From: Myxococcota bacterium
GTDB lineage: Bacteria > Myxococcota > JACRCW01
NCBI GenBank assembly: GCA_040752415.1
Contig: JBFMGU010000244.1
Coordinates: forward strand, 1 to 16,152
Reading direction: 5' to 3'
DNA length: 16,152 bases
Shown here piece by piece: positions 354-13,483 of the stretch. Every line of letters starts with the position of its first letter. Positions within the stretch are counted from its first letter, which is position 1. The notes beneath the pieces were generated by a model that worked only from the letters and a program-made list of their open reading frames with translations, ran no database searches and was not told where the DNA came from. Position numbers and translations under genes: made by a program.

Positions 354-387
354 AAAAGAAAAACGGCGCCAGGTTGCCCCGGCGCCG
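354..387 (-). terminator. Rho-independent terminator after the SctI-like gene
   Basis: Minus strand CGGCGCCGGG-GCAA-CCTGGCGCCG (10-bp stem with one G-U pair, GNRA loop) followed by TTTTTCTTTT, about 27 nt after the stop at 415. Confidence 0.9.
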
Positions 388-414
388 CTGCGGAAACAGG
401 AGGATGGGAGGCGC

Positions 415-921
415 TCAGACCTGGGTCTGCATGGTCTGCTTGACGCCGCTGGTGGCCTTCTCCACCACCTTGCTGGTCAGCTCCAGCTCCTGGCTGAACT
501 TGTAGACGCCCGCCTGCATGGCCAGCAGCTCCTGGTTGGAGAACTGCTTGCCACTGGAGGCCTTGGCAATGATCTTGTCCAGCGCGTTCTGGCCGTCCAT
601 GACGCCGGACATCAGGCGACGGACACCGTCAGCCTTCTTGGGGTCCTTGACGGCTTCCACCGCCTTCACGCCGGTGGAGGGGTCCACGCCTCCGGTCTTG
701 GCGGCGTGCAGCACGTCCACGGCCTTGGTGGCCTCCTGCGTCTTCTGGACGTCCTGGACCTGCTGGGCCTGGTTGACCTGCTGGGAGAGCATCTTGTCGA
801 ACTTGTTCTCCATGCCGCCCTGCTGACCGCCCACCTTCTGGGCTTGCTGGGCCTGCTGCTGGACCTGCTGCATCATCTGCTGCGCGGCCTTGCCAAGTCC
901 GCCACCAATGGGGTCTGCCAC
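415..921 (-). CDS. Type III secretion inner-rod-like protein (SctI/EscI/YscI/HrpB2 family), 168 aa
   Basis: GTG start at 921 with a strong GAGGAGG RBS; Gln-rich N-terminus; C-terminus NQELLAMQAGVYKFSQELELTSKVVEKATSGVKQTMQTQ fits the inner-rod pattern (LL..Q.......EL..K.V.K....V..L...Q). Confidence 0.75.
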   Translation of the reverse strand: MADPIGGGLGKAAQQMMQQVQQQAQQAQKVGGQQGGMENKFDKMLSQQVNQAQQVQDVQKTQEATKAVDVLHAAKTGGVDPSTGVKAVEAVKDPKKADGVRRLMSGVMDGQNALDKIIAKASSGKQFSNQELLAMQAGVYKFSQELELTSKVVEKATSGVKQTMQTQV

Positions 922-973
922 GGCTACCTCCTCAAGGAGAACCAACCCGCCGGGGGGCGGGCTTGCGGAGAGT

Positions 974-1000
974 GTATCGCATCCGGGGGACGGCAGTTGT
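974..1000 (-). promoter_or_regulatory. Putative sigma28-type promoter for the rod-like gene (ACAACTGC-N11-TGCGATAC)
   Basis: Same motif as 3457-3483; -10 resembles the sigma28 consensus GCCGATAA, with 8-N11-8 spacing. Confidence 0.7.
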
Positions 1001-1018
1001 GTGGGATACCGGGATCCC

Positions 1019-1924
1019 TCAGTTGCGCGCCCGGCCCGGTGTCGCGGTGGCCGCTTCCCGCGTGATTTCCTGCAGGATGCGACTGAGCTTCTCAATGGCC
1101 TTGGCGTGCAGGCGGCTGGTCCAGCTCTTGGACAGGCCCAGCTGGTCGCCCACCTCCTGCAGGCTCAGCTCCTTGAAGTAGTACAGCGTGAGCAGCTTCT
1201 GTTCCTGCTCCGGCATGCGCGAGAGCGCCTCACGCACGTGCTTCTTCATCTCCACGTCGGCGAGGCGGGTGTCGATGGGGACGGCTTCCTTGTCCTCCAC
1301 CTGCAGGCCTTCCATGCCCTCCAGCGAGGTCACATAGATGGTGACGAGGTTGCTGACCTGCTCCGCCAGCTCGTTGATCTCGTCCTCGGTGGGCTTGTTC
1401 TCGGCGGTGGAGCCGGCCTGGCGGTCCGCCATGTTCTGCAGGAAGGCGTTGGCGCGTTCCTCAAAGCGGAGCTTGGCGTACTCGTTGCGGTTGACCCAGC
1501 CCATCTGGCGCAGGCCGTCATAGATGGCGCCGCGCACGCGGTAGTAGCTGAAGGTCATGAAGTTGGCGCCGAACTTGGGGTCGTAGCGGTCGGCTGCCTC
1601 CAGCAGGCCGATCATGCCGAACTCCATGAGGTCGTCGAACTCGATCTCCTTGGCCAGCGTCTTCTTGATCTTGCCGGCAATGGAGCGGACGAAGGGCTTG
1701 TACTGGTCAATCAGCGCGGCCTTGTCGACCTTGCCGTCCGGGGTGAGCGCGGGGCCACCCTTGTTGTTGCCCTTGGGCGGAGGGATGGCCCCCAGCGACT
1801 CTCCCAGGTTCTGCACCGCGACCTGCTTGGCGGCCGGGTTGGGCGGCGGTCTGGGGCTGGGCCCCGGGGTCCGCGGCACGGGTCGCGGCGTGGAACCGGG
1901 GATGGTGGGAAGCTTGTCTCGCAT
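1019..1924 (-). CDS. fliA: FliA/WhiG-family (sigma28) RNA polymerase sigma factor with a Pro-rich N-terminal extension
   Basis: Region 2 DDLMEFGMIGLLEAADRYDPKFGANFMTFSYYRVRGAIYDGLRQMGW; region 4 LTLYYFKELSLQEVGDQLGLSKSWTSRLHAKAI. Confidence 0.9.
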   Translation of the reverse strand: MRDKLPTIPGSTPRPVPRTPGPSPRPPPNPAAKQVAVQNLGESLGAIPPPKGNNKGGPALTPDGKVDKAALIDQYKPFVRSIAGKIKKTLAKEIEFDDLMEFGMIGLLEAADRYDPKFGANFMTFSYYRVRGAIYDGLRQMGWVNRNEYAKLRFEERANAFLQNMADRQAGSTAENKPTEDEINELAEQVSNLVTIYVTSLEGMEGLQVEDKEAVPIDTRLADVEMKKHVREALSRMPEQEQKLLTLYYFKELSLQEVGDQLGLSKSWTSRLHAKAIEKLSRILQEITREAATATPGRARN

Positions 1925-1943
1925 GCGCCGCCAGTGCCGTGTT

Positions 1944-2333
1944 TCAGGAGCGGGCCAGCTTGGCCAGCTCGGTTTGGAGCCTGCTCACGAAGGACGGGTC
2001 CGCCTCACACATCTCCGAGATGGACTCCTCCATGGCCTTGATGCCCACGCCCTTGGCGCCCTTCATCTTGTCCTTGACGACGAGGGACACGAACTTCCGC
2101 GTGGCCTCCTCCTTGGACGCCTTGCCGTCCTTGAGGTCTTTGGCCAGGCCCGTGAGCTCATCCAGCAGCCAGCTGCGGACCTGGCGGGCCTTCTCGGTGG
2201 AGTCCTCGGCGGCGCCGGTGGCGGTGACCATGCCCTTGAAGCTGGCCTTCTCCGCCTTGCCGGTCTTTCCGGTTTCCTTGGCACCGCCGGTGCCGGTGGT
2301 ACCCCGCGGCCCACCTCCCCTACCCACACGCAT
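1944..2333 (-). CDS. Hypothetical protein, 129 aa (low-complexity G/T/K N-terminus, helical C-terminus); candidate secreted regulator or anti-sigma factor
   Basis: ATG with AGGAG RBS; co-oriented, ends 19 nt before the fliA start; coding-like codon usage. Confidence 0.75.
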   Translation of the reverse strand: MRVGRGGGPRGTTGTGGAKETGKTGKAEKASFKGMVTATGAAEDSTEKARQVRSWLLDELTGLAKDLKDGKASKEEATRKFVSLVVKDKMKGAKGVGIKAMEESISEMCEADPSFVSRLQTELAKLARS

Positions 2334-2374
2334 GGTTCACTCCTGGTAGGCCACGGGCTCGTTTCCGCAGCAGG

Positions 2375-2794
2375 TCAGACGCGATCAAAACAACCGGCCT
2401 CATGGGCATCAAGCAGCGCCCGCGCAAAGTCCGCGGCCATGCCCTTGGGGTCCTGGCTGATGGCGCGCTCCAGCTCGGCCTTCCCCTCGTCGAACTTCTT
2501 GAGGAACAAGAGGCTCTCCCCCACGTGGGCACGGGCCAGCGCGCTCTCCGGCGCCACCGACAACGCTTCCCGGTGACACTTCAGCGCCTGCTGGAACTTG
2601 CCCTGGGCGAAGAAGAGGTTGCCGAGGGCCATGTGGGGCACGTCGGAGTGCGGGACCAGGGCGGAGACGCCGGCAAAGACCTCCTGGGCCTCCTTCCACT
2701 TGCCCAGCTCCATCATGAGGTAGCCCGCCTCCAAGAGGAGAGCGACCTCCTTCTGGGGCACGGGGACAATGCCTTGGACCATTTCCTGGTTCAT
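2375..2794 (-). CDS. Small TPR protein, T3SS chaperone-like (SctG/SctY/SycD-type)
   Basis: About three TPR units (LLEAGYLMMELGKWKEAQEVF; MALGNLFFAQGKFQQALKCHREAL; HVGESLLFLKKFDEGKAELERAI); GGAG RBS; directly downstream of the needle-like gene. Confidence 0.8.
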   Translation of the reverse strand: MNQEMVQGIVPVPQKEVALLLEAGYLMMELGKWKEAQEVFAGVSALVPHSDVPHMALGNLFFAQGKFQQALKCHREALSVAPESALARAHVGESLLFLKKFDEGKAELERAISQDPKGMAADFARALLDAHEAGCFDRV

Positions 2795-2840
2795 TGGGAT
2801 CTCCGCCTGGGTTTTCGCAGGCTAGAGGTGTTGGGCCCCA

Positions 2841-2881
2841 CAAAGCAACAGGGCGGCCCGACGCAACGCCGGACCGCCCTG
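2841..2881 (-). terminator. Stem-loop (leaky terminator or mRNA stabiliser) after the needle-like gene
   Basis: Minus strand CAGGGCGGTCCGGCG-TTG-CGTCGGGCCGCCCTG (15-bp stem with 2 G-U pairs) followed by an interrupted U-tract TTGCTTTG. Confidence 0.75.
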
Positions 2882-2901
2882 GTGTCAGATGCCCCGTCCT
2901 A

Positions 2902-3405
2902 TCAGCGGACGTTGTTGATGCTGTTCTTGACGGTGTCGTGCTTGGTCTTCAGCACGTTGGAGATGGTGGTGTACTGGCGGTTCTCGTTCTGCATCTTCTC
3001 CTGCAGCGTCAGGTACTGCATGGAGAAGGACATCTGCATCTCCTGCATCTTCTTGGTCTGGTTCAGCATGTCCTGCTGCGGGTTGCCCGTGGAGGCCACG
3101 TCCGTGCCCGCGCTGCCAAGACCGGTGCCGTTCCCGGGGATCTGCTGGGTGCCACCCGCGTAGCCCGTCCCGCCGGCGCCCATGGCCTGGGCACCACCGT
3201 TGACGGCGGCGGTGATGACGGTCCCACCCGGCACGAATGGCGCTGCCACCGAAGCCGCTCCGGCCGCGGCTCCGGCTCCGGTCGCAACGCCCGTACGCAC
3301 CATGGTCCCGAAAGAGCTGTTGGGAGTCTGCCGGGTGGAGCTCGTCTGGGTGGACATCTCCGTGGAGCCGCCCCGGGTGGTGTTGTTGGTGCTGACGATA
3401 GCCAT
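2902..3405 (-). CDS. T3SS needle/filament-subunit-like protein (SctF-like C-terminal helix) with a long Gly/Ala/Thr-rich N-terminus, 167 aa
   Basis: CAGGAG RBS; S/T/N-rich N-terminus like T3S export signals; C-terminus YLTLQEKMQNENRQYTTISNVLKTKHDTVKNSINNVR resembles SctF/EspA-type ends (SN..K...D....I..N.R). Confidence 0.7.
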   Translation of the reverse strand: MAIVSTNNTTRGGSTEMSTQTSSTRQTPNSSFGTMVRTGVATGAGAAAGAASVAAPFVPGGTVITAAVNGGAQAMGAGGTGYAGGTQQIPGNGTGLGSAGTDVASTGNPQQDMLNQTKKMQEMQMSFSMQYLTLQEKMQNENRQYTTISNVLKTKHDTVKNSINNVR

Positions 3406-3456
3406 GTTGTTCTCCTGTGTTGGGTGCCGTGGGGGAGTGCCCTCAAGGCAGCGAAG

Positions 3457-3483
3457 TTATCGCACCGGGCCCGTGGCAGTTGC
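3457..3483 (-). promoter_or_regulatory. Putative sigma28-type promoter for the needle-like gene (GCAACTGC-N11-TGCGATAA)
   Basis: Same motif as 974-1000; -10 TGCGATAA matches GCCGATAA at 6 of 8 positions. Confidence 0.7.
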
Positions 3484-3524
3484 TTCTCCCTGGGGGATCC
3501 AGGGCGGGCCCACCATCAAGGGAA

Positions 3525-3920
3525 TCAGCGAGCCGCGCCTCCGCGCGCGCCTTTCTTCTTGGCGTCCGCGGGGTTGGCGGCCGGGGGACTGGCCAGCTTC
3601 TGCTTGGTGTTCCAGAGGTACTCCAGCAGCTCCTGGGCGTGCTGGTAGGCCTGCAGCGCCTTCTTGGCCCCGGCCTTCTCCTTGTTGTTGCCGGTCTTGG
3701 CCAGCTCCTCCAGCGCCGCCACGCGGGCTTCCAGGCCGGAGCGGTCCAGTGAGTCGGACTCAATCAGCTTCTCGATGGTGGGGAAACCCACGCCGGGGGG
3801 CGGCTCCTCCTTGCCCTTCTTCTTGCTGAGGGCGGCGGGCGCCGAGGGCGCCACGGGGCGCTTCACCGCGTCGCTGATCTTGAACGTGCCCATGCCGGGC
3901 GCGGTCTTGTCCTTGGACAT
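3525..3920 (-). CDS. Hypothetical protein, 131 aa; possible SctE/YscE-like needle co-chaperone
   Basis: Likely start at ATG 3920 (MSKDKTAPG...), since the upstream ORF extension overlaps the divergent gene; helical hairpin LEARVAALEELAKTGNNKEKAGAKKALQAYQHAQELLEYL; located immediately upstream of the needle-like gene. Confidence 0.65.
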   Translation of the reverse strand: MSKDKTAPGMGTFKISDAVKRPVAPSAPAALSKKKGKEEPPPGVGFPTIEKLIESDSLDRSGLEARVAALEELAKTGNNKEKAGAKKALQAYQHAQELLEYLWNTKQKLASPPAANPADAKKKGARGGAAR

Positions 3921-3965
3921 GTGCTGGACCTCAGGGCGCCAGAGCCGACGCCAGACAGGGCTCGC

Positions 3966-3995
3966 ATGGTCCGCGCCGCGGCCCCGCGCTGTCAA
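3966..3995 (-). promoter_or_regulatory. Putative sigma70-type promoter at the head of the T3SS-like module (TTGACA-N18-GACCAT)
   Basis: Perfect TTGACA (3995-3990), weak -10 GACCAT (3971-3966), 45 nt upstream of ATG 3920. Confidence 0.45.
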
Positions 3996-4076
3996 GGTAG
4001 GCCGCACGCGCGGTGGCTGCGTGGCCCGGCCGTGTGGGCCCTGGTAGGGTCCGCGACCCCGCTTGTTGGAGCACGC

Positions 4077-6863
4077 ATGCCCCGCCTCACCCGCCTGTCC
4101 AGCCTGGCCTTCCTGCTTGCCCTGTCCGCCTGCCCCACCTGCGTGCAACCCGAGCCCGGTCCCGGACTGGAAGGCGACGAGTGCGGCGCGGAGCGGGAGT
4201 GCGACACGGGCCTGCGCTGCGTGGAGGCGCACTGCGTGGCGGCGGACCTGGATGGGGGCAACGGGCAGTCGTCGTCCGGCGGTGCTTCCTCCAGCAGCAG
4301 CGGCGCGCCCGACGCGTGGACGCCGGAGTGCAACATCAAGCTGGACTGCGCGGTGAACGGCAGCGTGGACGGACGGGATTGCGTGGACGGTCGTTGCGTC
4401 TGGCTCTCATGCGAGTCCGACCTGGAGTGCGGCGCACGCTTCTGCGTGGAAGGCAGGTGTGAGGACCGCACCCGCTGCGAGTCCGACGAGGAATGCGCGG
4501 GGGAAGGCGGCGTGTGCGAGGCGGGCGTGTGCGTGGCGGCCTGCGCCGACGACGCCCAGTGCAACGAGGGCGCGCCGCTGCCGGTGTACACGTGCTCGGA
4601 GGGTCGGTGCCGGCAGCGCTGCCTGGGCGACTTCACGTGCCTGCTGGAAGGCGGCATCTGCGAGGGCGGCGTGTGCATTCCGCCGCTGTGCGAGGTGGAC
4701 GAGGATTGCGCCGAGCAGGGTCAGTACCTGGAATGCGCCTCCGGCCGCTGCACCCCCTACGAGCCCTGCACCGACGACGCCGCGTGCGGCAGCGCGACCT
4801 TGTATTGCGCGGAGGACGGGAAGTGTCGCGACCGGCCGGCGTGCGCGCGGGATGCGGATTGCGCGGGCGGGTTGTGCGTCTCCGGCGTGTGCCAGCCGGC
4901 CGCGGAGTGCGGGCCCAACGTGCCGGCCTGCGGCCTCTCCGAGGAGTGCGTGGGCGGGGTGTGCGTGCCGGCGCTGGAGTGTCGCGGCACCGGGGATTGC
5001 GCGGCGCCCCAGATCTGTCGCGCGGGCGTGTGCGCGGACCCGCCCACCTCGCAGGTGGCCAAGATCGTCATCTCCACGCCGTACGGCCTGTGCGACCCGC
5101 TGCTGGACGCGCGCGCGGCCTGCACGCTGACCATGCGCCCCGGCGAGAGCGCGCCGCTGGGGGCGTTGGCGCTGGATGCGGCGGGCCGGATCCTGGTGGG
5201 TGTGGCGCTGACCTGGGCCACCGACCAGCCCAGCATGGCCGACGTGCTGGCCGGTCCCTCGACGGAGACGCTGCTGACCGCGGGCCTGGACAGTGGCACC
5301 GCGCGCATCACCGCCAGCGCGCAGAACGTGACCAGCCCGGCGGTGAGCGTGGTCAACCTGGGCGCTCCGCCCGCCGGCGTGCGCGTGGCCGTCACCGACG
5401 CACGCAGCGGCAGCCCGGTCTCCGGCGCGATTGTGCGCGTGAACGACCAGGAGGAGACCACGGGTCCCGCGGGTCTCGTCGAGCTGGAGCCGGAGGCCAC
5501 GAGCGCGCCCTACACCGTCAGCGTGTTCCACCAGGCCTTTGACTACGTGACCTTCTTCTCCCTGCCGGCCGAGCAAGGCGGTGGGCTGGACGTGGTCATT
5601 CCGCTGGCCTCGTTGCAGCCGCCGCAGCAGTCCGCGGGGCTGCGCGGCACGGTGAACCTGGAGTCCGCGACGAGCCAGGGTCCGGTGGAGATGGCGCTGG
5701 CCGGCGTGAGCGCGCCCAACGTGGCGGACCTCTCGTTCTCGCGCCTGCTCGGGGACACCATCTTCGTCGACATCGAGCTGCCCATCATCGGCAGTCAGCA
5801 GATTCCGCTGCCGGGTGGCATCACGCTCTCGGCGGAAATCCCGCTGGTGGGCGCGCAGACGTTCAAGGACTCGTTCTACGCGCTGGGCAGCGGTGGGCGG
5901 CGCATTGCGTGGGCGTTCGGCGGTCGCCTGCCGTTTGCGGCGGTGCAGGGCCTGTTGGGACTGGGTGACCCCGTCACCGCGATCCTGGCGCTCATCCCGT
6001 ACTTCGAGGGGCTGACCCATGGGCTGGCCACCGGCTACCTGCTCACCGACCTGCCCTACGTCTACGACGGCGACACCGACTTCGACGGCGAGCCCGACGT
6101 GAACAACAACGGCGTCACCGACGAGTACGTGCCCGACTACTTCGCCTTCCCGCAGGCACCGCTCACCGTGCGGCAGGAGCAGACGCTGTACACCAGCGTG
6201 TCGTTCAGCGGGTTCCCCGACGGCGCGGCCGCTCCCCAGGCGCTGGTGGCCGCGGGCGCGCGCGTGCCCGGTCACGGCTTTGTCCCGCTGGGCCTGACCA
6301 GCCTGGCCCCCGACGAGGCCGCGGCCGGGTTCCAGCCCATCAAGCTGGCGCCGCGCTACGGCGGGCTGGAGTCCGGTGATTACGCCGTGTCCACGTTCGC
6401 GTTTGGTCCCGCGCCCGGCGGCGCGCCCACCGAGCTGAGCCTGCGCACCGCCGCGTTCGAGGTGCTGCCGTCGGAGGTGGACCTGGGCGCCATGATGCCG
6501 TTCGCCACCGGGAGCACCTACCGCGTGACCGCGAATCCGTCGCCGACGCGCACGTTGAATGTCGCGGGCGTGCCGGGCTCGGACTTCCACCGCGCCGTGA
6601 TTGCCGGTGACGACGGACGCTGGGTGATCTACCTGCCCGGCGGCGCCGGCGCACAGAACATCACCGTGCCCGACAGCCCCGCGAACCTCCCCGAGCGCGG
6701 TCTCTCCGGTCTGTACGTGGAGGCCATCCAGGTGTCCGCCGCGCTGCGCACCGCCGACCCGGCCAACCAGGTCCGCGCGCTTGTGAGCGGAGAAGGTCAG
6801 GGACTCACCCGTCTGGGCAATGAGACCGAGGGCCTCAGCCGCGGCGCCTTGCAGGCTCCGTGA
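4077..6863 (+). CDS. Large surface lipoprotein, 928 aa: lipobox, 11 four-Cys repeats, Ig-like and carboxypeptidase-regulatory-like beta domains, Ca-binding-like acidic loop
   Basis: ATG 4077 with GGAG upstream; signal MPRLTRLSSLAFLLALSA-C (lipobox LSAC); Cys repeats; GTARITASAQNVTS (Big_2-like); VAVTDARSGSPVSGAIVRV...TTGPAG (carboxypeptidase regulatory-like); DGDTDFDGEPDVNNNG. Confidence 0.85.
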   Translation: MPRLTRLSSLAFLLALSACPTCVQPEPGPGLEGDECGAERECDTGLRCVEAHCVAADLDGGNGQSSSGGASSSSSGAPDAWTPECNIKLDCAVNGSVDGRDCVDGRCVWLSCESDLECGARFCVEGRCEDRTRCESDEECAGEGGVCEAGVCVAACADDAQCNEGAPLPVYTCSEGRCRQRCLGDFTCLLEGGICEGGVCIPPLCEVDEDCAEQGQYLECASGRCTPYEPCTDDAACGSATLYCAEDGKCRDRPACARDADCAGGLCVSGVCQPAAECGPNVPACGLSEECVGGVCVPALECRGTGDCAAPQICRAGVCADPPTSQVAKIVISTPYGLCDPLLDARAACTLTMRPGESAPLGALALDAAGRILVGVALTWATDQPSMADVLAGPSTETLLTAGLDSGTARITASAQNVTSPAVSVVNLGAPPAGVRVAVTDARSGSPVSGAIVRVNDQEETTGPAGLVELEPEATSAPYTVSVFHQAFDYVTFFSLPAEQGGGLDVVIPLASLQPPQQSAGLRGTVNLESATSQGPVEMALAGVSAPNVADLSFSRLLGDTIFVDIELPIIGSQQIPLPGGITLSAEIPLVGAQTFKDSFYALGSGGRRIAWAFGGRLPFAAVQGLLGLGDPVTAILALIPYFEGLTHGLATGYLLTDLPYVYDGDTDFDGEPDVNNNGVTDEYVPDYFAFPQAPLTVRQEQTLYTSVSFSGFPDGAAAPQALVAAGARVPGHGFVPLGLTSLAPDEAAAGFQPIKLAPRYGGLESGDYAVSTFAFGPAPGGAPTELSLRTAAFEVLPSEVDLGAMMPFATGSTYRVTANPSPTRTLNVAGVPGSDFHRAVIAGDDGRWVIYLPGGAGAQNITVPDSPANLPERGLSGLYVEAIQVSAALRTADPANQVRALVSGEGQGLTRLGNETEGLSRGALQAP
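4182..5033 (+). repeat. Eleven Cys-rich protein repeats C-x5/6-C-x4-10-C-x4/5-C
   Basis: Counted in the translation, e.g. CESDLECGARFCVEGRC, CESDEECAGEGGVCEAGVC, CARDADCAGGLCVSGVC, CRGTGDCAAPQICRAGVC. Confidence 0.85.
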
Positions 6864-8822
6864 TCAACCCGCCGCGCGCGGTGAGCGGCGCACGCGCTTC
6901 TCGCCGACGCGCAGGGTGATGCGTGCGTCGTCCAGGTGCTCCAGGAAGGGGATGACGTACTTGCGCGTCTCCCCCATCAGGTCCTTGAACTCCTGCGTGG
7001 TGATGCCGCCCTTCTCGTCGATGAAGGCGAGCGTCCTGGCCACCAGCGCGTCGTACGGCGTGCGCGCGAAGTGCAGGTCATCCTTCACCCGCACCAGCTT
7101 CTGGCTGCTGACCAGCGCCTTGGTGGCGTCGGAGACCGCACCCTCCGAGACGCCCAGCGACGTGGCGAGCTGACCGCGCGAAGGTGGCGCCAGACCCGCT
7201 TCCACGTGCGCGTGTTCCACCTTGGACAACAGCTCCGGGCTCACGCCCTTGGGGCGGTGGGAGGCCAGTCGCACCCCGTCGCCCTCGACGACGACCGCGT
7301 TGCTCTTCAGCACGCCGAGAAGCGCGGAGAAGCGCGCGCGCTCCAGCACCTGGCCGTCCACCTTCAGCGTCGTGCGCATCTCCTCCAGCGGGGCATGCGG
7401 CTCCAGCGGATGATCCTGGTGGTAGCGCGTGAGCGCGGCCTGCAGTCGCGTGGTGAATTCCGCGAGGCGGTCGGGGTGCCAGAGGACTTCGGTCTCGCCC
7501 AGGCGGGCGCGACGGAGCTGGGCGCGCCCCACCGCGTCGTCCACCGCCTTCTTCACGTCCTTCCAGGGCAGCCGTCGACGAAGCTGCGCGAGGTCCGCGC
7601 CGAGGGCGCCCGTGTCCCAGACCGCCTGCCCAAGTCGCTGCGGCAGCCCGCCGGAACGCAACGCCTCCAACGCGCTGGCGGTGTCGGGCCGGCCGCGGCG
7701 ACGACGGGGAGGATGCGGATCCAGGATCTCCCCGCCCCCAAACGTCGCCCCCTGCCCGGGCAGACGACGATGTCCGCGCAGGATGAACCGCTGCCCAGGA
7801 CGACACACCATCTCGCCCTCGAGAATCAGCTGCACCACCGACGTGGTTCCCGGCTCCAGCCCCGGTGATTCGCCGGCAGGCTCGTAGACCAGACGCAGAC
7901 GCGCTGGCACCGCGGCGGCGCCCACGTGCACCATCACGGAAGCGTGGTCGCGCAGGCGCGGCGCTTCAGCGAGCGTGCGCAGTTGCACGTCGACACGTCG
8001 GGTGGGCACCAGCGCTCCCGTCGGGCAGAGCACCGCGCCGCGCGGCACGTCCGTCACCGCCACGCCCGGCAGGTTCACCGCGGTGCGCCATCCCGGCTGC
8101 GCCTGCGTCACCGTCTTGCCATGGCTCTGCAGCCCGCGGGCACGCACGCCCTTGGGGCCGGGATGCACGTCCACCTCGTCGTCGACCTTGAGGGATCCAC
8201 CGGAGAGCGTCCCGGTGACGACGGTGCCAAACCCCTTCACGCTGAAGACGCGGTCCACCGGCAAGAAGGGCACTCCGTCGACGGGACGGGGCGGGAGGGC
8301 CTTCACCGCCTTCAGGAGCTCCGCGCGCAGCGTCGGGAGCCCCACCCCGGTCTGTGCTGACACCGGCACCACCGGCACCTCTCCCAGCCCCGCGCCCTGC
8401 AGCTGCGCGCGCACCTCCTCGGCGGCCAGCTCGACGAGCTCCGGCTCCACGCGGTCCACCTTGGAGAGCGCCACCACCATCCCGCGCACGCCCAGCAGGC
8501 TGGCAATGGCCACGTGCTCCCGCGTCTGCGGCATCACGCCTTCATCCGCGGCCACCACGAGCAGCAGGAGATCCAGGCCCCACGCGCCGGCCACCATGGT
8601 GTGCACCAGGCGCTCGTGCCCGGGCACGTCGATCACGCTGGCGGTGACGCCTGAGCCGAGATCCCAGGAGGCGAACCCCAGCTCGATGGTGATGCCGCGG
8701 CGTTTCTCCTCAGGGAGGCGGTCGGTGTTGGCGCCGGTGAGGGCCTTCACCAGCGTGCTCTTGCCGTGGTCGATGTGGCCTGCGGTTCCAATGGCGACGT
8801 GCATGGTAGGTGCGTCCTGCAT
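6864..8822 (-). CDS. selB: Selenocysteine-specific translation elongation factor SelB
   Basis: IGTAGHIDHGKS, DRLPEEKRRGITIELGF, IDVPGHE, VAADEGVMPQTREH, VDRVFSVKGFGTVVTGT, RTAVNL; C-terminal winged helix TRKYVIPFLEHLD...TLRVGEKR; start at ATG 8822 or 8804. Confidence 0.95.
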   Translation of the reverse strand: MQDAPTMHVAIGTAGHIDHGKSTLVKALTGANTDRLPEEKRRGITIELGFASWDLGSGVTASVIDVPGHERLVHTMVAGAWGLDLLLLVVAADEGVMPQTREHVAIASLLGVRGMVVALSKVDRVEPELVELAAEEVRAQLQGAGLGEVPVVPVSAQTGVGLPTLRAELLKAVKALPPRPVDGVPFLPVDRVFSVKGFGTVVTGTLSGGSLKVDDEVDVHPGPKGVRARGLQSHGKTVTQAQPGWRTAVNLPGVAVTDVPRGAVLCPTGALVPTRRVDVQLRTLAEAPRLRDHASVMVHVGAAAVPARLRLVYEPAGESPGLEPGTTSVVQLILEGEMVCRPGQRFILRGHRRLPGQGATFGGGEILDPHPPRRRRGRPDTASALEALRSGGLPQRLGQAVWDTGALGADLAQLRRRLPWKDVKKAVDDAVGRAQLRRARLGETEVLWHPDRLAEFTTRLQAALTRYHQDHPLEPHAPLEEMRTTLKVDGQVLERARFSALLGVLKSNAVVVEGDGVRLASHRPKGVSPELLSKVEHAHVEAGLAPPSRGQLATSLGVSEGAVSDATKALVSSQKLVRVKDDLHFARTPYDALVARTLAFIDEKGGITTQEFKDLMGETRKYVIPFLEHLDDARITLRVGEKRVRRSPRAAG

Positions 8823-8937
8823 ACTCCCCCACCCGTGGCGCCGTCCTCCTGCCCGCGGTCCGGGTGGCGGTGGCTGGGATGGGACGGAAAGCCGACGCGC
8901 GACCGCCGGCACCCTTGGTCTATGATGCCGCCGCCCC

Positions 8938-10374
8938 ATGTCCGTCCAGCGCTACGAATGCCCCCGCTGCCAGAGCGTCTTCGTCCCCGCGGAAGCGGTG
9001 AGCGAGGGCGCCTTTGCGCGTTGTCCCTCGTGCGGGGGCGTGGCGGTGCCCGCAAGCAAGCCGCCGGGCCCCAGCCGCGAGCGCCTGCTGCACAACGAGG
9101 GTGACGGGTCGAGCATCACGGGGGCCTCCGACCCGCCGGAGCGCAGCGCGCCCGACTTCACCGCGCCCCCGCCCGCGCCTCCGCCCGCGACGATGTGGCC
9201 GCAGGACGCCACCATGCCCACGAGCAGCGGCCTGTTCGCCGCGCTGCTCAGCGGGAGCCCCGACCTGGAGCTGAGCGGCCCGGCGCTCTCGGCTCCGCCC
9301 CCGTCGACACCGCCGCCCGCCGCGACGGAGGAGGCCCCGCCGGAATCCGCGCCGGAAGCGCCGGGCGGCGGCCTGTTCGCCTCGCTCATCTCCGGCACCC
9401 CCGACCTGGTCCCCAGCGCCGCACCGCGCGCGAAGGTGGGCGGAGGCGCCGCGGAGCTGGGGATCCACGACGAGGAACGCAGCGGCGACGACCCCGACCG
9501 CACCACGACGTACGGCACCGGCGACGAGGCCACCCACGCCGCGACTTCCGAGCTGACCCTGCCGCCAAATTCCCAGGAGTTCCTGCTGCCGCCGGTGACC
9601 GGCACCGCGGAGCTGATCAGCACGTACCACGGCGAGCCAACGATGGACGGGGAGCTGCCCCGCCCGCCCCCGTCGGCGGCGCCCACGGGCGAGGCACCCG
9701 CACCGGAGGAGTCTCCGTACCTGGACAAGGAGACCTTCAACGACGACGAGTTCGCCTCACTGCTCGGCGGCTCCTTCAACACCGCGCCGGTGCCCGAGGA
9801 GACGGTGCGCGCGCCCGTCGTCGACGGCTGGGTGGTGAACGCGCCGGGCAAGCCTCCGCCGCTCAAGAAGCCCGTCGAGGCACCCGCGCCGCCACCCGCC
9901 AAGCCCAAGACCGACAACGCGGCGAGCCTGCTGGCCGGGTTGGCGCCGATTCCGTCGGTGGCGTCGTTGGGACCGGCGCCGAAGCTGGGCAGCGGAATCA
10001 CGCCGCTCCGCGTGGCCGCGGTGCTGGTGAGCGCGCTGCTGCTGGGAACACTCAGCGGCGTGGGCCTGGCGCCGCCTCCGCCCACCCCCGCCTCGACGGG
10101 ACCAGAGGGCGCGCGGGTACGGCTGGCGGAAGCGCGTCGCCTGCTGGCGAGCGGGCAGGACAAGGAAGCCGTCCAGGTGCTGCACGCGGCGCTGGCGTTG
10201 GATGACAAGCTGGCCGAGGCCATGCGCGACCTGGGCGTGGCCTACGCGCGACAGGAGAAGTACGAGGAGGCGGCGCGCGCGTACGAGGCGTACCTGGAGA
10301 TGTCGCCCAAGGCTCCCGACGCCATCGAGATGCGCACCAGCATCGAGCGCTACAAGAAGGGCGGCCCCCGGTGA
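8938..10374 (+). CDS. Zinc-ribbon / Pro-rich linker / transmembrane / C-terminal TPR protein
   Basis: N-terminal CPRC...CPSC; long Pro/Ala/Glu-rich region; hydrophobic VAAVLVSALLLGTLSGVGL; TPR AMRDLGVAYARQEKYEEAARAYEAYLEMSP. Confidence 0.85.
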   Translation: MSVQRYECPRCQSVFVPAEAVSEGAFARCPSCGGVAVPASKPPGPSRERLLHNEGDGSSITGASDPPERSAPDFTAPPPAPPPATMWPQDATMPTSSGLFAALLSGSPDLELSGPALSAPPPSTPPPAATEEAPPESAPEAPGGGLFASLISGTPDLVPSAAPRAKVGGGAAELGIHDEERSGDDPDRTTTYGTGDEATHAATSELTLPPNSQEFLLPPVTGTAELISTYHGEPTMDGELPRPPPSAAPTGEAPAPEESPYLDKETFNDDEFASLLGGSFNTAPVPEETVRAPVVDGWVVNAPGKPPPLKKPVEAPAPPPAKPKTDNAASLLAGLAPIPSVASLGPAPKLGSGITPLRVAAVLVSALLLGTLSGVGLAPPPPTPASTGPEGARVRLAEARRLLASGQDKEAVQVLHAALALDDKLAEAMRDLGVAYARQEKYEEAARAYEAYLEMSPKAPDAIEMRTSIERYKKGGPR

Positions 10375-12757: not shown

Positions 12758-13483
12758 ATGTCCTCGTGCCCAGGAGAGGGGACGAGCCGTTTCAACAATC
12801 CCTTCGTGCGGCCGGAGGTCCGGGCGCGGCTGAAGCACCACGTCACGACGCAAGCGCCAAAGCCCGCGCCCGCGCGGCCGGCGGTGCGCCCTGCCCCCAC
12901 GGAGCACGGACCCGGGGACGACGCGCGACTGTGGCTGGAAGCCGTGCGCGGTGCCACGCCGATGGCGGTGCTGCACCCGGGCAAGCGGCCCGTGCTGCCA
13001 ATGCGCGTGGACCTGGAGCGCCCGGAGGTCGACCCCGACGACGAGGCGTTCGAGGAGCTGTGCCGCTTCGTGCGCGGGGAGGGCGTGTTTGACCTGGCGG
13101 ACCAGGACGAGTTCGTGGAGGGAGCGCGCGCGGGATTGGACCCGCGGGTGATGGCGCGGCTGCGCGCGGGTGAGTTCAGTGTGCAGGGTTACGTGGACCT
13201 GCATGGGCGCGTGGTCGACGAGGCGTACGACGAGCTGCGTGGGTTTCTCCGTCGGGCCAGGCTGGAGGCGCGTCGCTGCGTCCTGGTGGTGCACGGGCGC
13301 GGGCGGCACAGCAAGGACCGCATTCCGGTGCTCAAGGAGAAGGTGGTCCAGTGGCTCAGCCGCGGAGCGATGAGCCGACAGGTGCTCGCGTTCTGCACCG
13401 CCAGGTCCCACGACGGGGGAGCGGGCGCCATGTACGTGTTGCTGCGGAGGAAGGGAGAGGAGCTTGCGGTGGGGAACCGGTGA
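12758..13483 (+). CDS. Smr/MutS2 C-terminal domain protein (SmrA/SmrB-like endonuclease)
   Basis: LRAGEFSVQGYVDLHG, VLVVHGRGRHS, VLKEKVVQWL, VLAFCTARSHDGGAGAMYVLLR are hallmark Smr motifs. Confidence 0.9.
   Translation: MSSCPGEGTSRFNNPFVRPEVRARLKHHVTTQAPKPAPARPAVRPAPTEHGPGDDARLWLEAVRGATPMAVLHPGKRPVLPMRVDLERPEVDPDDEAFEELCRFVRGEGVFDLADQDEFVEGARAGLDPRVMARLRAGEFSVQGYVDLHGRVVDEAYDELRGFLRRARLEARRCVLVVHGRGRHSKDRIPVLKEKVVQWLSRGAMSRQVLAFCTARSHDGGAGAMYVLLRRKGEELAVGNR

Follow-up and report, generated by a model that had tools for sequence, protein, structure and literature searches.

Class 3 promoters of enteric bacteria are driven by the sigma factor FliA (sigma-28) together with its anti-sigma factor FlgM, and SigD of Bacillus acts in a similar way. 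In the type III clusters of Pseudomonas syringae and Erwinia, the ECF sigma factor HrpL drives the pilus subunit and secreted proteins through hrp-box promoters, which have served to find effectors. Bordetella pairs BtrS with the secreted anti-sigma factor BtrA/BspR, and in the ExsE-ExsC-ExsD-ExsA cascade an exported regulator frees a transcription activator. Chlamydia, a non-flagellate, has both an injectisome and a sigma-28, and the latter is not known to drive its needle or rod genes.

The T3SS* of Myxococcus is required for prey lysis and is described, in the accessible parts of three reports, as needleless, with effectors unknown (PMC12075869, PMC10433427, PMC10849154). The accessible part of Abby and Rocha puts the systems of Myxococcales, which are stated to lack SctF, at the base of the whole non-flagellar type III group (PMC3459982). 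Table S1B of PMC9548883 lists MXAN_2434-2442 as hypothetical, TPR, hypothetical, sigma-70 family, hypothetical, YscJ, hypothetical, FliH and SctN.

We analyzed a window of 16,152 nt, positions 1 to 16,152 of contig JBFMGU010000244.1, from the genome of a Myxococcota bacterium (assembly GCA_040752415.1). It contains the same five-gene block as T3SS*: a needle-like gene, a TPR gene, a gene for a 129-aa protein, a sigma factor gene (hereafter module sigma) and a rod-like gene (Table 1). A complete genome of another Myxococcota family (f11) shows the order needle-like, TPR, 129-aa-like, sigma, rod-like, SctJ, large protein, SctL and SctN, identical to that of MXAN_2434-2442 within the T3SS* cluster of Myxococcus xanthus (MXAN_2434-2464). 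The two loci also agree in the length of the sigma gene, 837 nt, and of SctN, 1314 nt. The f11 module thus lies inside a type III secretion cluster, whereas the secretion core genes of the window's genome are on other contigs, away from the module and unlike T3SS*. The window's organism further differs from M. xanthus in being flagellated, with a full flagellar cluster and its own FliA. Taken together, the earlier note's view of an injectisome-like module agrees with the needle-like and SctI-like genes and with the f11 arrangement, but not with the location of the core genes here.

Table 1 Features of the module, in window coordinates.
Feature	Position	Strand	Remarks
131-aa gene, upstream in the module	3525..3920	-	conserved in 25 loci (tblastn)
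Putative promoter of the needle-like gene	3457..3484	-	-35 CAAC 3482-3479, 16-nt spacer, -10 CGATAA 3462-3457
Needle-like gene, 167 aa	2902..3405	-	disordered N-terminal part; long conserved C-terminal helix, end ...SNVLKTKHDTVKNSINNVR
Terminator-like hairpin directly 3' of the needle-like gene	2849..2881	-	15 pairs, then TTGCTTTG
TPR protein, 139 aa, chaperone-like	2375..2794	-	Pfam TPR families; directly after the needle-like gene
129-aa protein, no known family, candidate anti-sigma factor	1944..2333	-	alignment A2 and predicted complex
Sigma factor, 301 aa, FliA/WhiG-like sister clade	1019..1924	-	region 4.2 helix GLSKSWTSRLH; TIGR02479 160.5 bits
Putative promoter of the rod-like gene	974..1001	-	-35 CAAC 999-996, 16-nt spacer, -10 CGATAC 979-974
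Short GC hairpin of the rod-like leader, after the -10 box and before the start codon	944..963	-	
Rod-like (SctI-like) gene, 168 aa, GTG start	415..921	-	weak PF17001 matches of orthologues
Terminator-like hairpin 3' of the rod-like gene	362..389	-	12 pairs, then TTTTCTTTTGT

Needle-like, rod-like and neighboring proteins

Because a terminator-like hairpin follows each of them, the needle-like and rod-like genes appear to be single-gene units. If termination after the needle-like gene is efficient, the TPR, 129-aa and sigma genes of the window would depend on another promoter. The TPR protein matched several NCBIfam models, all below cut-off (LcrH/SycD at 32.4 bits against 104.8, SctY at 21.1 against 70); its best specific match, weak at 34.8 bits against 170, is the chlamydial needle chaperone CdsG. 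The protein of the 131-aa gene matched no family in Pfam or NCBIfam, and its gene lies where YscE is found in Ysc-type loci.

The needle-like protein of the window has no Pfam match, and none of 24 proteins, comprising it and 23 relatives, matched PF09392 at E ≤1. One f11 orthologue aligned with PF09392 (T3SS_needle_F) at an E-value of 0.0075, below the cut-off, with residues 127–182 placed against profile positions 19–71. In a protein-atlas search the nearest cluster scored 0.89, and it serves as a lead only, since just 11% of its members carry PF09392. A profile search of the needle-like alignment A1 against solved structures did not recover a needle protein, even with E-values of up to 10. 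The fold model built from A1 was discarded; it consisted of just a long C-terminal helix and, with a mean pLDDT of 50.7 and a pTM of 0.18, was too poor to be used for a fold search. A search for needle-like relatives within the family, order and class to which the window's organism belongs covered 2, 2 and 4 genomes, respectively, and yielded one match.

The rod-like orthologues matched PF17001 (T3SS_basalb_I) weakly in 15 of 18 cases (best E 0.00062, all below the 32.4-bit cut-off), and the window copy itself gave no match to this family. Its nearest atlas clusters scored 0.94–0.95, with PF09392 on 58–80% of their members. Judged by these matches, the rod-like protein is assigned to the needle/rod superfamily, as either an SctF-type or an SctI-type member.

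As a separate observation, one rhizosphere metatranscriptome (0.05 of sampled words) contained contigs of relatives, 85–95% alike over parts of four genes (rod-like, sigma, TPR and needle-like); such contigs cannot give starts, strand or level, and they speak for relatives, not for the source organism itself.

Motif conservation and specificity in orthologous loci

The earlier note had described two copies of the 25-nt motif CAACTGCC-N10-TGCGATA, one ahead of the needle-like gene and one ahead of the rod-like gene. Both were confirmed on the minus strand, at 975–999 and 3458–3482, the positions originally given (974–1000 and 3457–3483) including one extra base on each side. The remaining details held as well: 15 bases are identical between the copies, the spacers differ, and the end of CGATAA/C is separated by 51 nt from the needle-like start codon (ATG at 3405) and by 52 nt from the rod-like one (GTG at 921). 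The GTG start is backed by the orthologue alignment, with the consensus N-terminus MxDPxGGGIGKAA. Allowing up to two mismatches, the window held two matches against 0.01 expected, and two or more copies were reached in 0 of 200 shuffles. With up to one mismatch, the two window copies were the only ones in the 11,011,160-base genome, and the reversed-pattern control returned 0. In orthologues, CGATA is separated from the start of the gene match by between about 50 and 180 nt, and the equal distance of the window pair is not conserved.

When orthologous upstream regions were scanned, as the earlier note had proposed, the strict motif CAAC-N16-CGATA preceded 28 of the 33 needle-like and 13 of the 17 rod-like orthologues; the former count excludes L036, a locus labeled candidate division WWE3 with neither synteny nor motif (28 of 34 with it). 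Across 35 loci (705,808 nt, both strands), 41 of the 47 strict sites were located at needle-like or rod-like genes. A position weight matrix (PWM) applied at ≥13 bits to 80 loci placed 30 matches at needle-like genes, 14 at rod-like genes, one at a TPR gene, one at a 129-aa gene and 11 elsewhere, two of these 11 falling in the gap between the 131-aa and needle-like genes. The rod-like gene keeps its adjoining box despite 0.7–2 kb inserted after the sigma gene in three loci (L008, L015 and L021).

The consensus of the class is C-R-CAAC-(C)-N15-CGATAA. The 41 sites were collected by CAAC, the 16-nt spacing and CGATA, and conservation at unforced positions comprises C at -2 (0.71), a purine at -1 (0.92), C at +4 (0.67) and A after CGATA (0.90). 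The -10 box CGATAA is conserved at 0.90–0.97 per position, where CGATA is forced by selection and the final A is not. Regarding the variant promoter proposed earlier, the sigma-28 geometry was retained, but TGC(C) after CAAC and T before GCGATA proved peculiar to the window's genome and do not belong to the consensus.

This conservation upstream of orthologues supports the earlier assignment, and on sequence grounds we consider the boxes a real promoter class, conserved across Myxococcota and of sigma-28 geometry. The class shares its CGATAA -10 core and its spacing with the flagellar class 3 form, given in the earlier note as TAAAGTTT-N11-GCCGATAA, and RCAA-N17-CGATAA aligns with TAAA-N17-CGATAA of flagellar FliA. 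A -10 box of the GCCGATAA type at sigma-28 spacing is found in the promoters of the class. Each window promoter would drive one gene, either the needle-like gene or that of the SctI-like rod.

Clade, region 4.2 signature and candidate partner of the module sigma

The best family of the module sigma is FliA/WhiG (TIGR02479), as the earlier note had implied, although its 160.5 bits fall short of the 189.6-bit cut-off; region 3 was not found by Pfam, and f11 orthologues score 113 bits against FliA_WhiG. It is nevertheless a diverged paralogue rather than the FliA of this genome, which encodes three FliA-like sigmas, among them the separate flagellar FliA, and has many weaker sigma-70-family matches. 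A tree separated 11 module sigmas from 7 flagellar or other FliA-like sigmas with a support of 100/100 on the dividing branch. In region 4.2, all 11 module sigmas carry GLSKSW(T/M)SR(L/R/K)H, whereas the flagellar and other FliA-like sigmas of the same genomes show (V/I)(S/T)E(S/P)R(V/I)CQ(L/I)(H/L) at the same position in 7/7. These features assign the module sigma to a separate sister clade of putative FliA paralogues outside the flagellar group. The changed region 4.2 helix fits the -35 change from TAAAG to RCAAC; recognition of the -10 box (CGATAA) would have stayed sigma-28-like, with the helix changing alongside the -35 box. Against the chlamydial sigma-28 model PRK05911 the module sigma reaches 87.2 bits, compared with a cut-off of 378, and is not an orthologue by score.

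Identity with the published Myxococcus SigF was ruled out, as SigF is MXAN_0785 and the cluster sigma is MXAN_2437. A literature search found no discussion of the module sigma; Thiery et al. 2022, the primary T3SS* paper, and Konovalova et al. 2010 were outside its reach and may mention it. Neither did a term search of four papers return a mention: three lack the word "sigma", and its sole occurrence in PMC10849154 is SigF.

The motif co-occurs with the module sigma. Among 131 Myxococcota genomes, the 76 with an orthologue (E ≤1e-45) hold 291 exact sites (9 in the control) and the 55 without it hold 33 (2 in the control), numbers whose statistics are overstated because related genomes are not independent. 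Seven of the 33 come from one f11 genome without the module sigma at that threshold, and 14 genomes with the module sigma have no exact site. True FliA was absent from the four f11 genomes searched, in which the module sigma is the best FliA_WhiG match and the next is an open frame of 716–736 aa, taken to be the primary sigma.

Flagellar genes lack the box where we looked for it. In one module-bearing genome, the -35 boxes of three flagellin genes, at the spacing of sigma-28 promoters, are of the T(A/C)AAG type rather than CAAC. In the window's genome, neither the flagellar contigs (C24 and C357) nor the secretion-core contigs gave a PWM match at ≥12 bits, TAAA-N17-CGATA has 0 sites, and the flagellin upstream region contains neither the module motif nor an obvious box. 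A module carrier without an FHIPEP or flagellin match (G004) was set aside as a flagellum-less case, its genome being only 82% complete. From the co-occurrence and the sequence signatures, we infer that the module sigma reads the motif.

The product of the neighboring 129-aa gene is predicted to bind this sigma. Complex prediction with sigma residues 60–295 gave a score of 0.83 (best of three controls, 0.00). This mark was attained by 116 of the 157 solved complexes and, among 215 mismatched pairs, by 2. Contacts agree between runs to at least 80%, with a partner pLDDT of at least 64. The predicted contacts join sigma regions 2, 3 and 4 to residues 53–126 of the 129-aa protein, which is probably an anti-sigma factor that keeps the sigma inactive. 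None of the 17 members of alignment A2 matched FlgM (PF04316) at E up to 1, and the high score may also mirror likeness to the solved FliA-FlgM complex. The N-terminus of the family is disordered and rich in Gly, Pro and basic residues (consensus MRIxxxGGP...), the sole hint of putative type III export. By analogy with FlgM, release of the 129-aa protein may be coupled to its export through the finished secretion base.

The observed conservation and specificity of the motif, its co-occurrence with the module sigma, and the clade and signature of that sigma enter an explanation that we regard as likely as a whole, namely a conserved sigma-28-type promoter class, most likely read by the intervening sigma, which is probably held by a 129-aa anti-sigma factor. 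Like FliA and FlgM, the pair would consist of a sigma with a small neighbor predicted around its regions 2–4, and its targets would be exported axial type III subunits; unlike FliA, the module sigma has RCAAC rather than TAAAG as its putative -35 box, a changed 4.2 helix, a separate clade and a partner without FlgM homology, and it occurs beside true FliA in flagellated species and alone in the four f11 genomes. With HrpL it shares the arrangement of a dedicated alternative sigma encoded with secretion genes, although HrpL belongs to the ECF family, has another -10 box and lacks an adjacent anti-sigma candidate. The BtrS and Exs circuits would follow the same logic, with regulators of another type, since the module sigma is sigma-28-like and not ECF or AraC-type, and with export of the 129-aa protein as a putative step. 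The likeness to Chlamydia lies in a sigma-28-type factor kept beside a non-flagellar machine, which is the only type III machine that Chlamydia has, and in the weakly CdsG-like TPR neighbor.

It is rather unlikely, though the most serious alternative, that the boxes are real promoters read by another sigma, either of ECF type or, in flagellated species, the true flagellar FliA. ECF-sigma promoters have an AAC-containing -35 box, a -10 box starting with CG and similar spacing, and the (G/A)CAAC core with its 16-nt gap would fit this general pattern. The several FliA-like and sigma-70-family proteins of the window's genome, and the 33 exact sites in genomes without a detected module sigma, would also be accommodated. 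Against this stand the full CGATAA, a sigma-28 signature (with the reservation on forced bases given above), the tie of the motif to genes flanking the module sigma in 17 syntenic loci and the site numbers, which track the presence of that sigma. The persistence of the motif in f11 genomes without true FliA and the T(A/C)AAG boxes of the flagellin promoters in a module-bearing genome likewise speak against it.

Promoter sites beyond the two genes

At ≥16 bits the PWM gave 21 real and 13 control matches in the window's genome, i.e., about eight excess sites; with scores of 16.2 (rod-like) and 15.8 bits (needle-like), the window sites would not be singled out by the PWM alone. The relaxed 9-base CAAC-N16-CGATA occurs there at 27 sites, where composition predicts about 25, and is uninformative alone. 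In two complete f11 genomes, GCAAC-N16-CGATAAT was found 7 and 5 times, where the reversed control gave 0 in both. All 12 exact sites lie 20–71 nt upstream of a correctly oriented ORF, and the genes encode uncharacterized proteins. The claim that only the two subunits are controlled is not borne out, given these f11 sites and the excess in the window's own genome. About ten further genes elsewhere in that genome would be under the same promoter class. Most of them encode uncharacterized, probably secreted proteins that lack signal peptides, a feature that makes these proteins candidate substrates for the non-flagellar machine.

The single orientation and narrow placement of the 12 sites also argue against a transcription factor site or leader RNA element in place of a -35/-10 pair, a reading that we hold to be very improbable. 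The short hairpin in the rod-like leader would suit an RNA element, but the motif consists of two short conserved blocks always set 16 nt apart by unconserved sequence, is found at varying distances from the start codon among orthologues and has a downstream block equal to the sigma-28 -10 core. Chance resemblance or a functionless local duplication, to which the mere 15 common bases and the near-compositional frequency of the 9-base version might point, has a negligible probability and is refuted by the orthologue comparison, in which orthologous positions are conserved across distant genomes amid unrelated flanks and spacers, as well as by the shuffles.

Returning to a promoter class read by the module sigma, a broader reading is possible rather than probable: the Myxococcota non-flagellar lineage, which includes T3SS* and is the earliest-branching, may have kept a flagellar-style checkpoint, in which a small exported anti-sigma factor restrains a sigma-28 paralogue, and release of the latter switches on axial subunits and substrates. 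If so, the needle-like protein would be a real polymerizing subunit, and the system would therefore not be needleless; the circuit would preserve a relic of the flagellar ancestry of injectisomes, and the CRCAAC-N16-CGATAA box would identify the substrates or effectors with which T3SS* acts in predation. The module also offers a case in which two sigma-28-type factors of one cell would be kept apart by the changed -35 box and region 4.2 helix. The needle-like protein offers a candidate filament subunit, and a dedicated sigma with a recognizable box would provide a computational and genetic handle on the exports of the machine, beginning with the five to seven exact-box genes, all uncharacterized, in each of the two complete f11 genomes.

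Paired promoter boxes and their conservation

Two near-identical boxes precede the needle-like and rod-like genes on the minus strand (Table), sharing 15 bases and the length of a 10-nt gap whose sequence differs between them. This pair, described in the earlier note, was confirmed by sequence match, shuffling and genome scan. Two matches, with up to two mismatches allowed, were found in 0 of 200 dinucleotide-preserving shuffles of the window, and a scan of the whole assembly (11.0 Mb, 520 contigs, the window being one entire contig) with at most one mismatch returned both window copies as the sole matches, the reversed-pattern control giving 0. The distance from box end to start codon, 51 nt for the needle-like gene (ATG) and 52 nt for the rod-like gene (GTG, a start backed by orthologue alignment), had been counted as a feature of the pair; it is coincidental, because it ranges from about 50 to 180 nt among orthologues. 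Terminator-like hairpins stand behind both genes, and therefore each promoter in the window seems to drive a single gene.

Features of the window
Feature	Position	Strand	Remarks
Box CAACTGCCGTCCCCCGGATGCGATA	999-975	-	ahead of rod-like gene
Box CAACTGCCACGGGCCCGGTGCGATA	3482-3458	-	ahead of needle-like gene
Conserved 131-aa gene	3920-3525	-	conserved ORF
Needle-like gene	3405-2902	-	167 aa
Terminator-like hairpin	2881-2849	-	after needle-like gene
TPR protein	2794-2375	-	weak matches to needle/translocator chaperone families CdsG, LcrH/SycD
129-aa protein	2333-1944	-	without family match
Sigma factor	1924-1019	-	best family FliA/WhiG, 160.5 bits vs cut-off 189.6
GC-rich hairpin, 8 pairs	944-963	-	rod-like 5' leader, between -10 box and ribosome-binding site
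Rod-like gene	921-415	-
Terminator-like hairpin	389-362	-	after rod-like gene
Large Cys-rich lipoprotein-like gene	3921-6863	+	divergent from module; probable start near 4077
SelB-type selenocysteine elongation factor gene	6864-8939	-	apparently unrelated to module
Smr-domain gene	12758-13483	+	apparently unrelated to module

Searching the protein collection with the needle-like protein gave 127 relatives, and a genome scan identified 402 loci encoding such relatives, the best 80 of which were retained for analysis; the order needle-like, TPR, (129-aa), sigma, rod-like is preserved in 17 of these best 80. The strict motif CAAC-N16-CGATA lies ahead of the needle-like orthologue in 28/33 loci (28/34 with locus L036) and ahead of the rod-like orthologue in 13/17, the conservation upstream of orthologues that the earlier note had proposed to look for. 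Loci without it have variants, for example CAACC...GAGATAA. Altogether, 35 loci (705,808 nt, both strands counted) hold 47 strict matches, 41 of them at needle-like or rod-like genes, and where DNA is inserted behind the sigma gene, as in some loci, the box still adjoins the rod-like gene. A weighted matrix built from the 41 sites reads C-R-CAAC-C-N15-CGATAA-K-G, with positions outside the selection criteria conserved too. Given its block structure, fixed gap, single orientation and sigma-28-like -10 core, we take the conserved motif, on sequence grounds, to be a promoter. The earlier reading was right in kind, in that it recognized sigma-28-type promoters; compared with the matrix, its consensus was too specific, and its scope was too narrow.

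The SctI (rod) family PF17001 gave weak matches in 15/18 rod-like orthologues, whose nearest protein-atlas clusters score 0.94-0.95, with the needle family PF09392 present in 58-80% of the members. The needle identity of the needle-like protein is less certain than the rod-like assignment: the PF09392 profile matched 0/24 of its relatives and one distant orthologue (E 0.0075), the nearest atlas cluster (0.89) is a lead only, and the fold model is of poor quality. Small proteins encoded at loci L037-L085 share the last ~55 residues of the needle-like protein (QEMQMSF..QYL.LQ.KMQ.ENR....SN..K.KHDT.K..I.N.R) at 55-75% identity, and their records bear the labels Chitinophagaceae, Acidobacteriota, Chlorobiaceae, Verrucomicrobiae, Geothrix and others (402 loci overall). 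In a genome of the same class (G002 contig C452, L100:12266-16264), a Ser/Thr kinase, an FHA/YscD-cytoplasmic-domain protein and two uncharacterised genes precede the module; an acyltransferase lies behind it, and secretion core genes are absent nearby.

A sigma-28 paralogue and its probable promoters

In the genome that contains the window, contig C24 holds a complete flagellar cluster with flhA-flhF-flhG-fliA at its end and, after these, genes for rod, ring, hook-associated proteins, flagellin and cap; a second, non-flagellar core set is scattered over C138 (SctV), C143 (SctR), C157 (SctJ-like) and C491 (SctN). It encodes three FliA-like sigmas, and flagellin together with a pair of FHIPEP genes occurs in four of five other genomes that carry the module. 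On this gene content, the module sigma is a paralogue, usually coexisting with a true FliA. The interval C24:1-32000 (loci L096, L097) spans flagellar genes FliH to FliD, MotAB, FlhF/FlhG, FliA and flagellin. The third FliA-like sigma (C168:55826-56443; L099:11824-12876, minus strand; 350-aa frame, 171.6 bits) has the canonical region 4.2 helix and adjoins a sigma-54 activator with a receiver domain.

We aligned 11 module sigmas with seven FliA-like sigmas, flagellar or other, encoded by the same genomes. All 11 module sigmas carry the region 4.2 helix GLSKSW(T/M)SR(L/R/K)H, and all seven others (V/I)(S/T)E(S/P)R(V/I)CQ(L/I)(H/L); a tree separated the two groups with 100/100 support. The altered positions, which from alignment to sigma-70 we presume to be -35 box contacts, would fit a -35 change from TAAAG to RCAAC. 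In one module-bearing genome, three flagellin genes show -35 boxes of the TAAAGTTT, TCAAGACC and TAAAGTTC type at sigma-28 spacing, and the flagellar and secretion-core contigs of the window's own genome gave zero matrix matches of at least 12 bits.

The strongest argument on which sigma reads the box comes from f11, another Myxococcota family with large genomes, in which the module sits inside a type III secretion cluster and the box is kept. Each of four f11 genomes searched has one module-sigma orthologue (about 43% identity, helix GQSKSWASRLH), which is its top FliA_WhiG match, and no true FliA was found in these four; two of them hold 7 and 5 exact GCAAC-N16-CGATAAT sites (control 0 and 0). 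Across 131 Myxococcota genomes, 324 exact sites were counted vs 11 in the control. The 76 genomes with the module sigma account for 291 (9 control) and the 55 without it for 33 (2 control), counts that come from related genomes, are not independent and include exceptions in both directions. We consider it likely that the module sigma reads the RCAAC/CGATAA promoters.

A candidate anti-sigma factor and further box genes

The N-terminus of the 129-aa protein is rich in Gly, Pro and basic residues and its C-terminal part is helical; no homology to FlgM was found. Its complex model with the sigma factor scored 0.83, the best of three controls reaching 0.00; this mark is attained by 116/157 solved complexes vs 2/215 mismatched pairs. 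At least 80% of contacts agreed among runs, the partner pLDDT was at least 64, and the contacts cover sigma regions 2, 3 and 4. The model supports a predicted binding of the 129-aa protein to the sigma, with a score that may partly stem from likeness to the solved FliA-FlgM complex. On balance, we lean towards the protein being an anti-sigma factor. In two loci a strong box follows the TPR gene, at L033:3830 (-) before the 129-aa gene and at L055:7341 (+) in the gap ahead of the sigma gene, which points to a promoter of this class for the anti-sigma candidate or for the sigma itself in some lineages; the positions resemble the habit of the flagellar system, which puts flgM and fliA under their own promoter class.

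In the mechanism we propose, the sigma-28 paralogue would recognise RCAAC/CGATAA promoters and be held inactive by the 129-aa protein. Its release, possibly via export of that protein across the finished base in the manner of FlgM, would start expression of the rod-like and needle-like subunits together with a set of other proteins. That export is coupled to sigma release we regard as a tentative and rather doubtful step. The system would be a variant of the sigma-28/anti-sigma scheme, attached to a non-flagellar type III system.

The earlier note had limited these promoters to the two polymerising subunits; a matrix excess in the window's own genome and 12 sites in f11 point to a larger regulon. 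The matrix scan of the own genome returned 11 sites of at least 18 bits and 6 of at least 20 bits, the reversed control 3 and 1. Among the best sites are those ahead of a Gln/Thr-rich protein of 414 aa on contig C63 and of its paralogue on C312. Others of the best stand ahead of 451-, 290-, 344- and 423-aa proteins without family or signal peptide, and a few ahead of Sec-type products (an FG-GAP/TSP3 lipoprotein, a transglutaminase-elicitor protein and an RTX-repeat protein). At least 114/401 sampled genomes encode the C-terminal domain of the C63 protein, of which at least 109/172 in f11, both counts being floors under a stricter first-look filter. Among 29 C63-family loci fetched from other genomes, 22 have a box (at least 11 bits) at the expected place, typically CGCAAC-TGATCG...-GCGATAATC. 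In two complete f11 genomes, 12/12 exact sites have a correctly oriented ORF 20-71 nt downstream, the products being two needle-like orthologues, one C63-family member and nine uncharacterised proteins with polar Ser/Thr/Pro-rich N-termini. Such uncharacterised products are candidate substrates, their secretion being putative.

Box-gene products (L173-L184) often begin M-x-(R/K/x)-I-(D/N/x), followed by a Ser/Thr/Pro/Gly-rich stretch, and the family of the window's 129-aa protein begins MRI(K/R)xGGP; compared by eye, these N-termini could share an export signal. Box-like sites also lie upstream of Cys-rich lipoproteins on C224 (22.7 bits) and C60 (relaxed CAAC-N16-CGATA) that are similar to the divergent gene of the window, which has no box of at least 7 bits upstream.

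Relation to the Myxococcus type III cluster

A complete f11 genome has the order 148-aa, needle-like, TPR, 130-aa, sigma, rod-like, SctJ, 695-aa, SctL, SctN, with a box upstream of the needle-like gene. As listed in Table S1B of PMC9548883, MXAN_2434-2442 of Myxococcus xanthus DK1622 follow the f11 order: MXAN_2434 (hypothetical, 567 nt), MXAN_2435 (TPR), MXAN_2436 (hypothetical, 396 nt), MXAN_2437 (sigma-70 family, 837 nt), MXAN_2438 (hypothetical, 417 nt), MXAN_2439 (YscJ), MXAN_2440 (hypothetical), MXAN_2441 (FliH) and MXAN_2442 (SctN, 1314 nt). The module sigma is not the Myxococcus SigF, which is MXAN_0785; the cluster sigma is MXAN_2437.

The relevant passages of PMC12075869, PMC10433427 and PMC10849154 describe this cluster (T3SS*, MXAN_2434-2464) as lacking secretin, needle and translocon, with effectors not known, and Myxococcales systems, placed at the root of non-flagellar type III systems, are said in the corresponding part of Abby and Rocha (PMC3459982) to be without SctF. 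The word 'sigma' is absent from the texts of PMC12075869, PMC10433427 and PMC10196010, and neither MXAN_2437 nor MXAN_2436 is mentioned in the main texts of the literature searched. The box offers a testable route to T3SS* substrates. The time-zero values in Table S1B (PMC9548883), in the units of that table, are about 240 to 1070 for MXAN_2434-2438, about 220-330 for MXAN_2439 and MXAN_2441, and about 30 to 100 for MXAN_2440, 2442 and 2447-2449; the higher values of MXAN_2434-2438 are, short of proof, consistent with abundant structural subunits.
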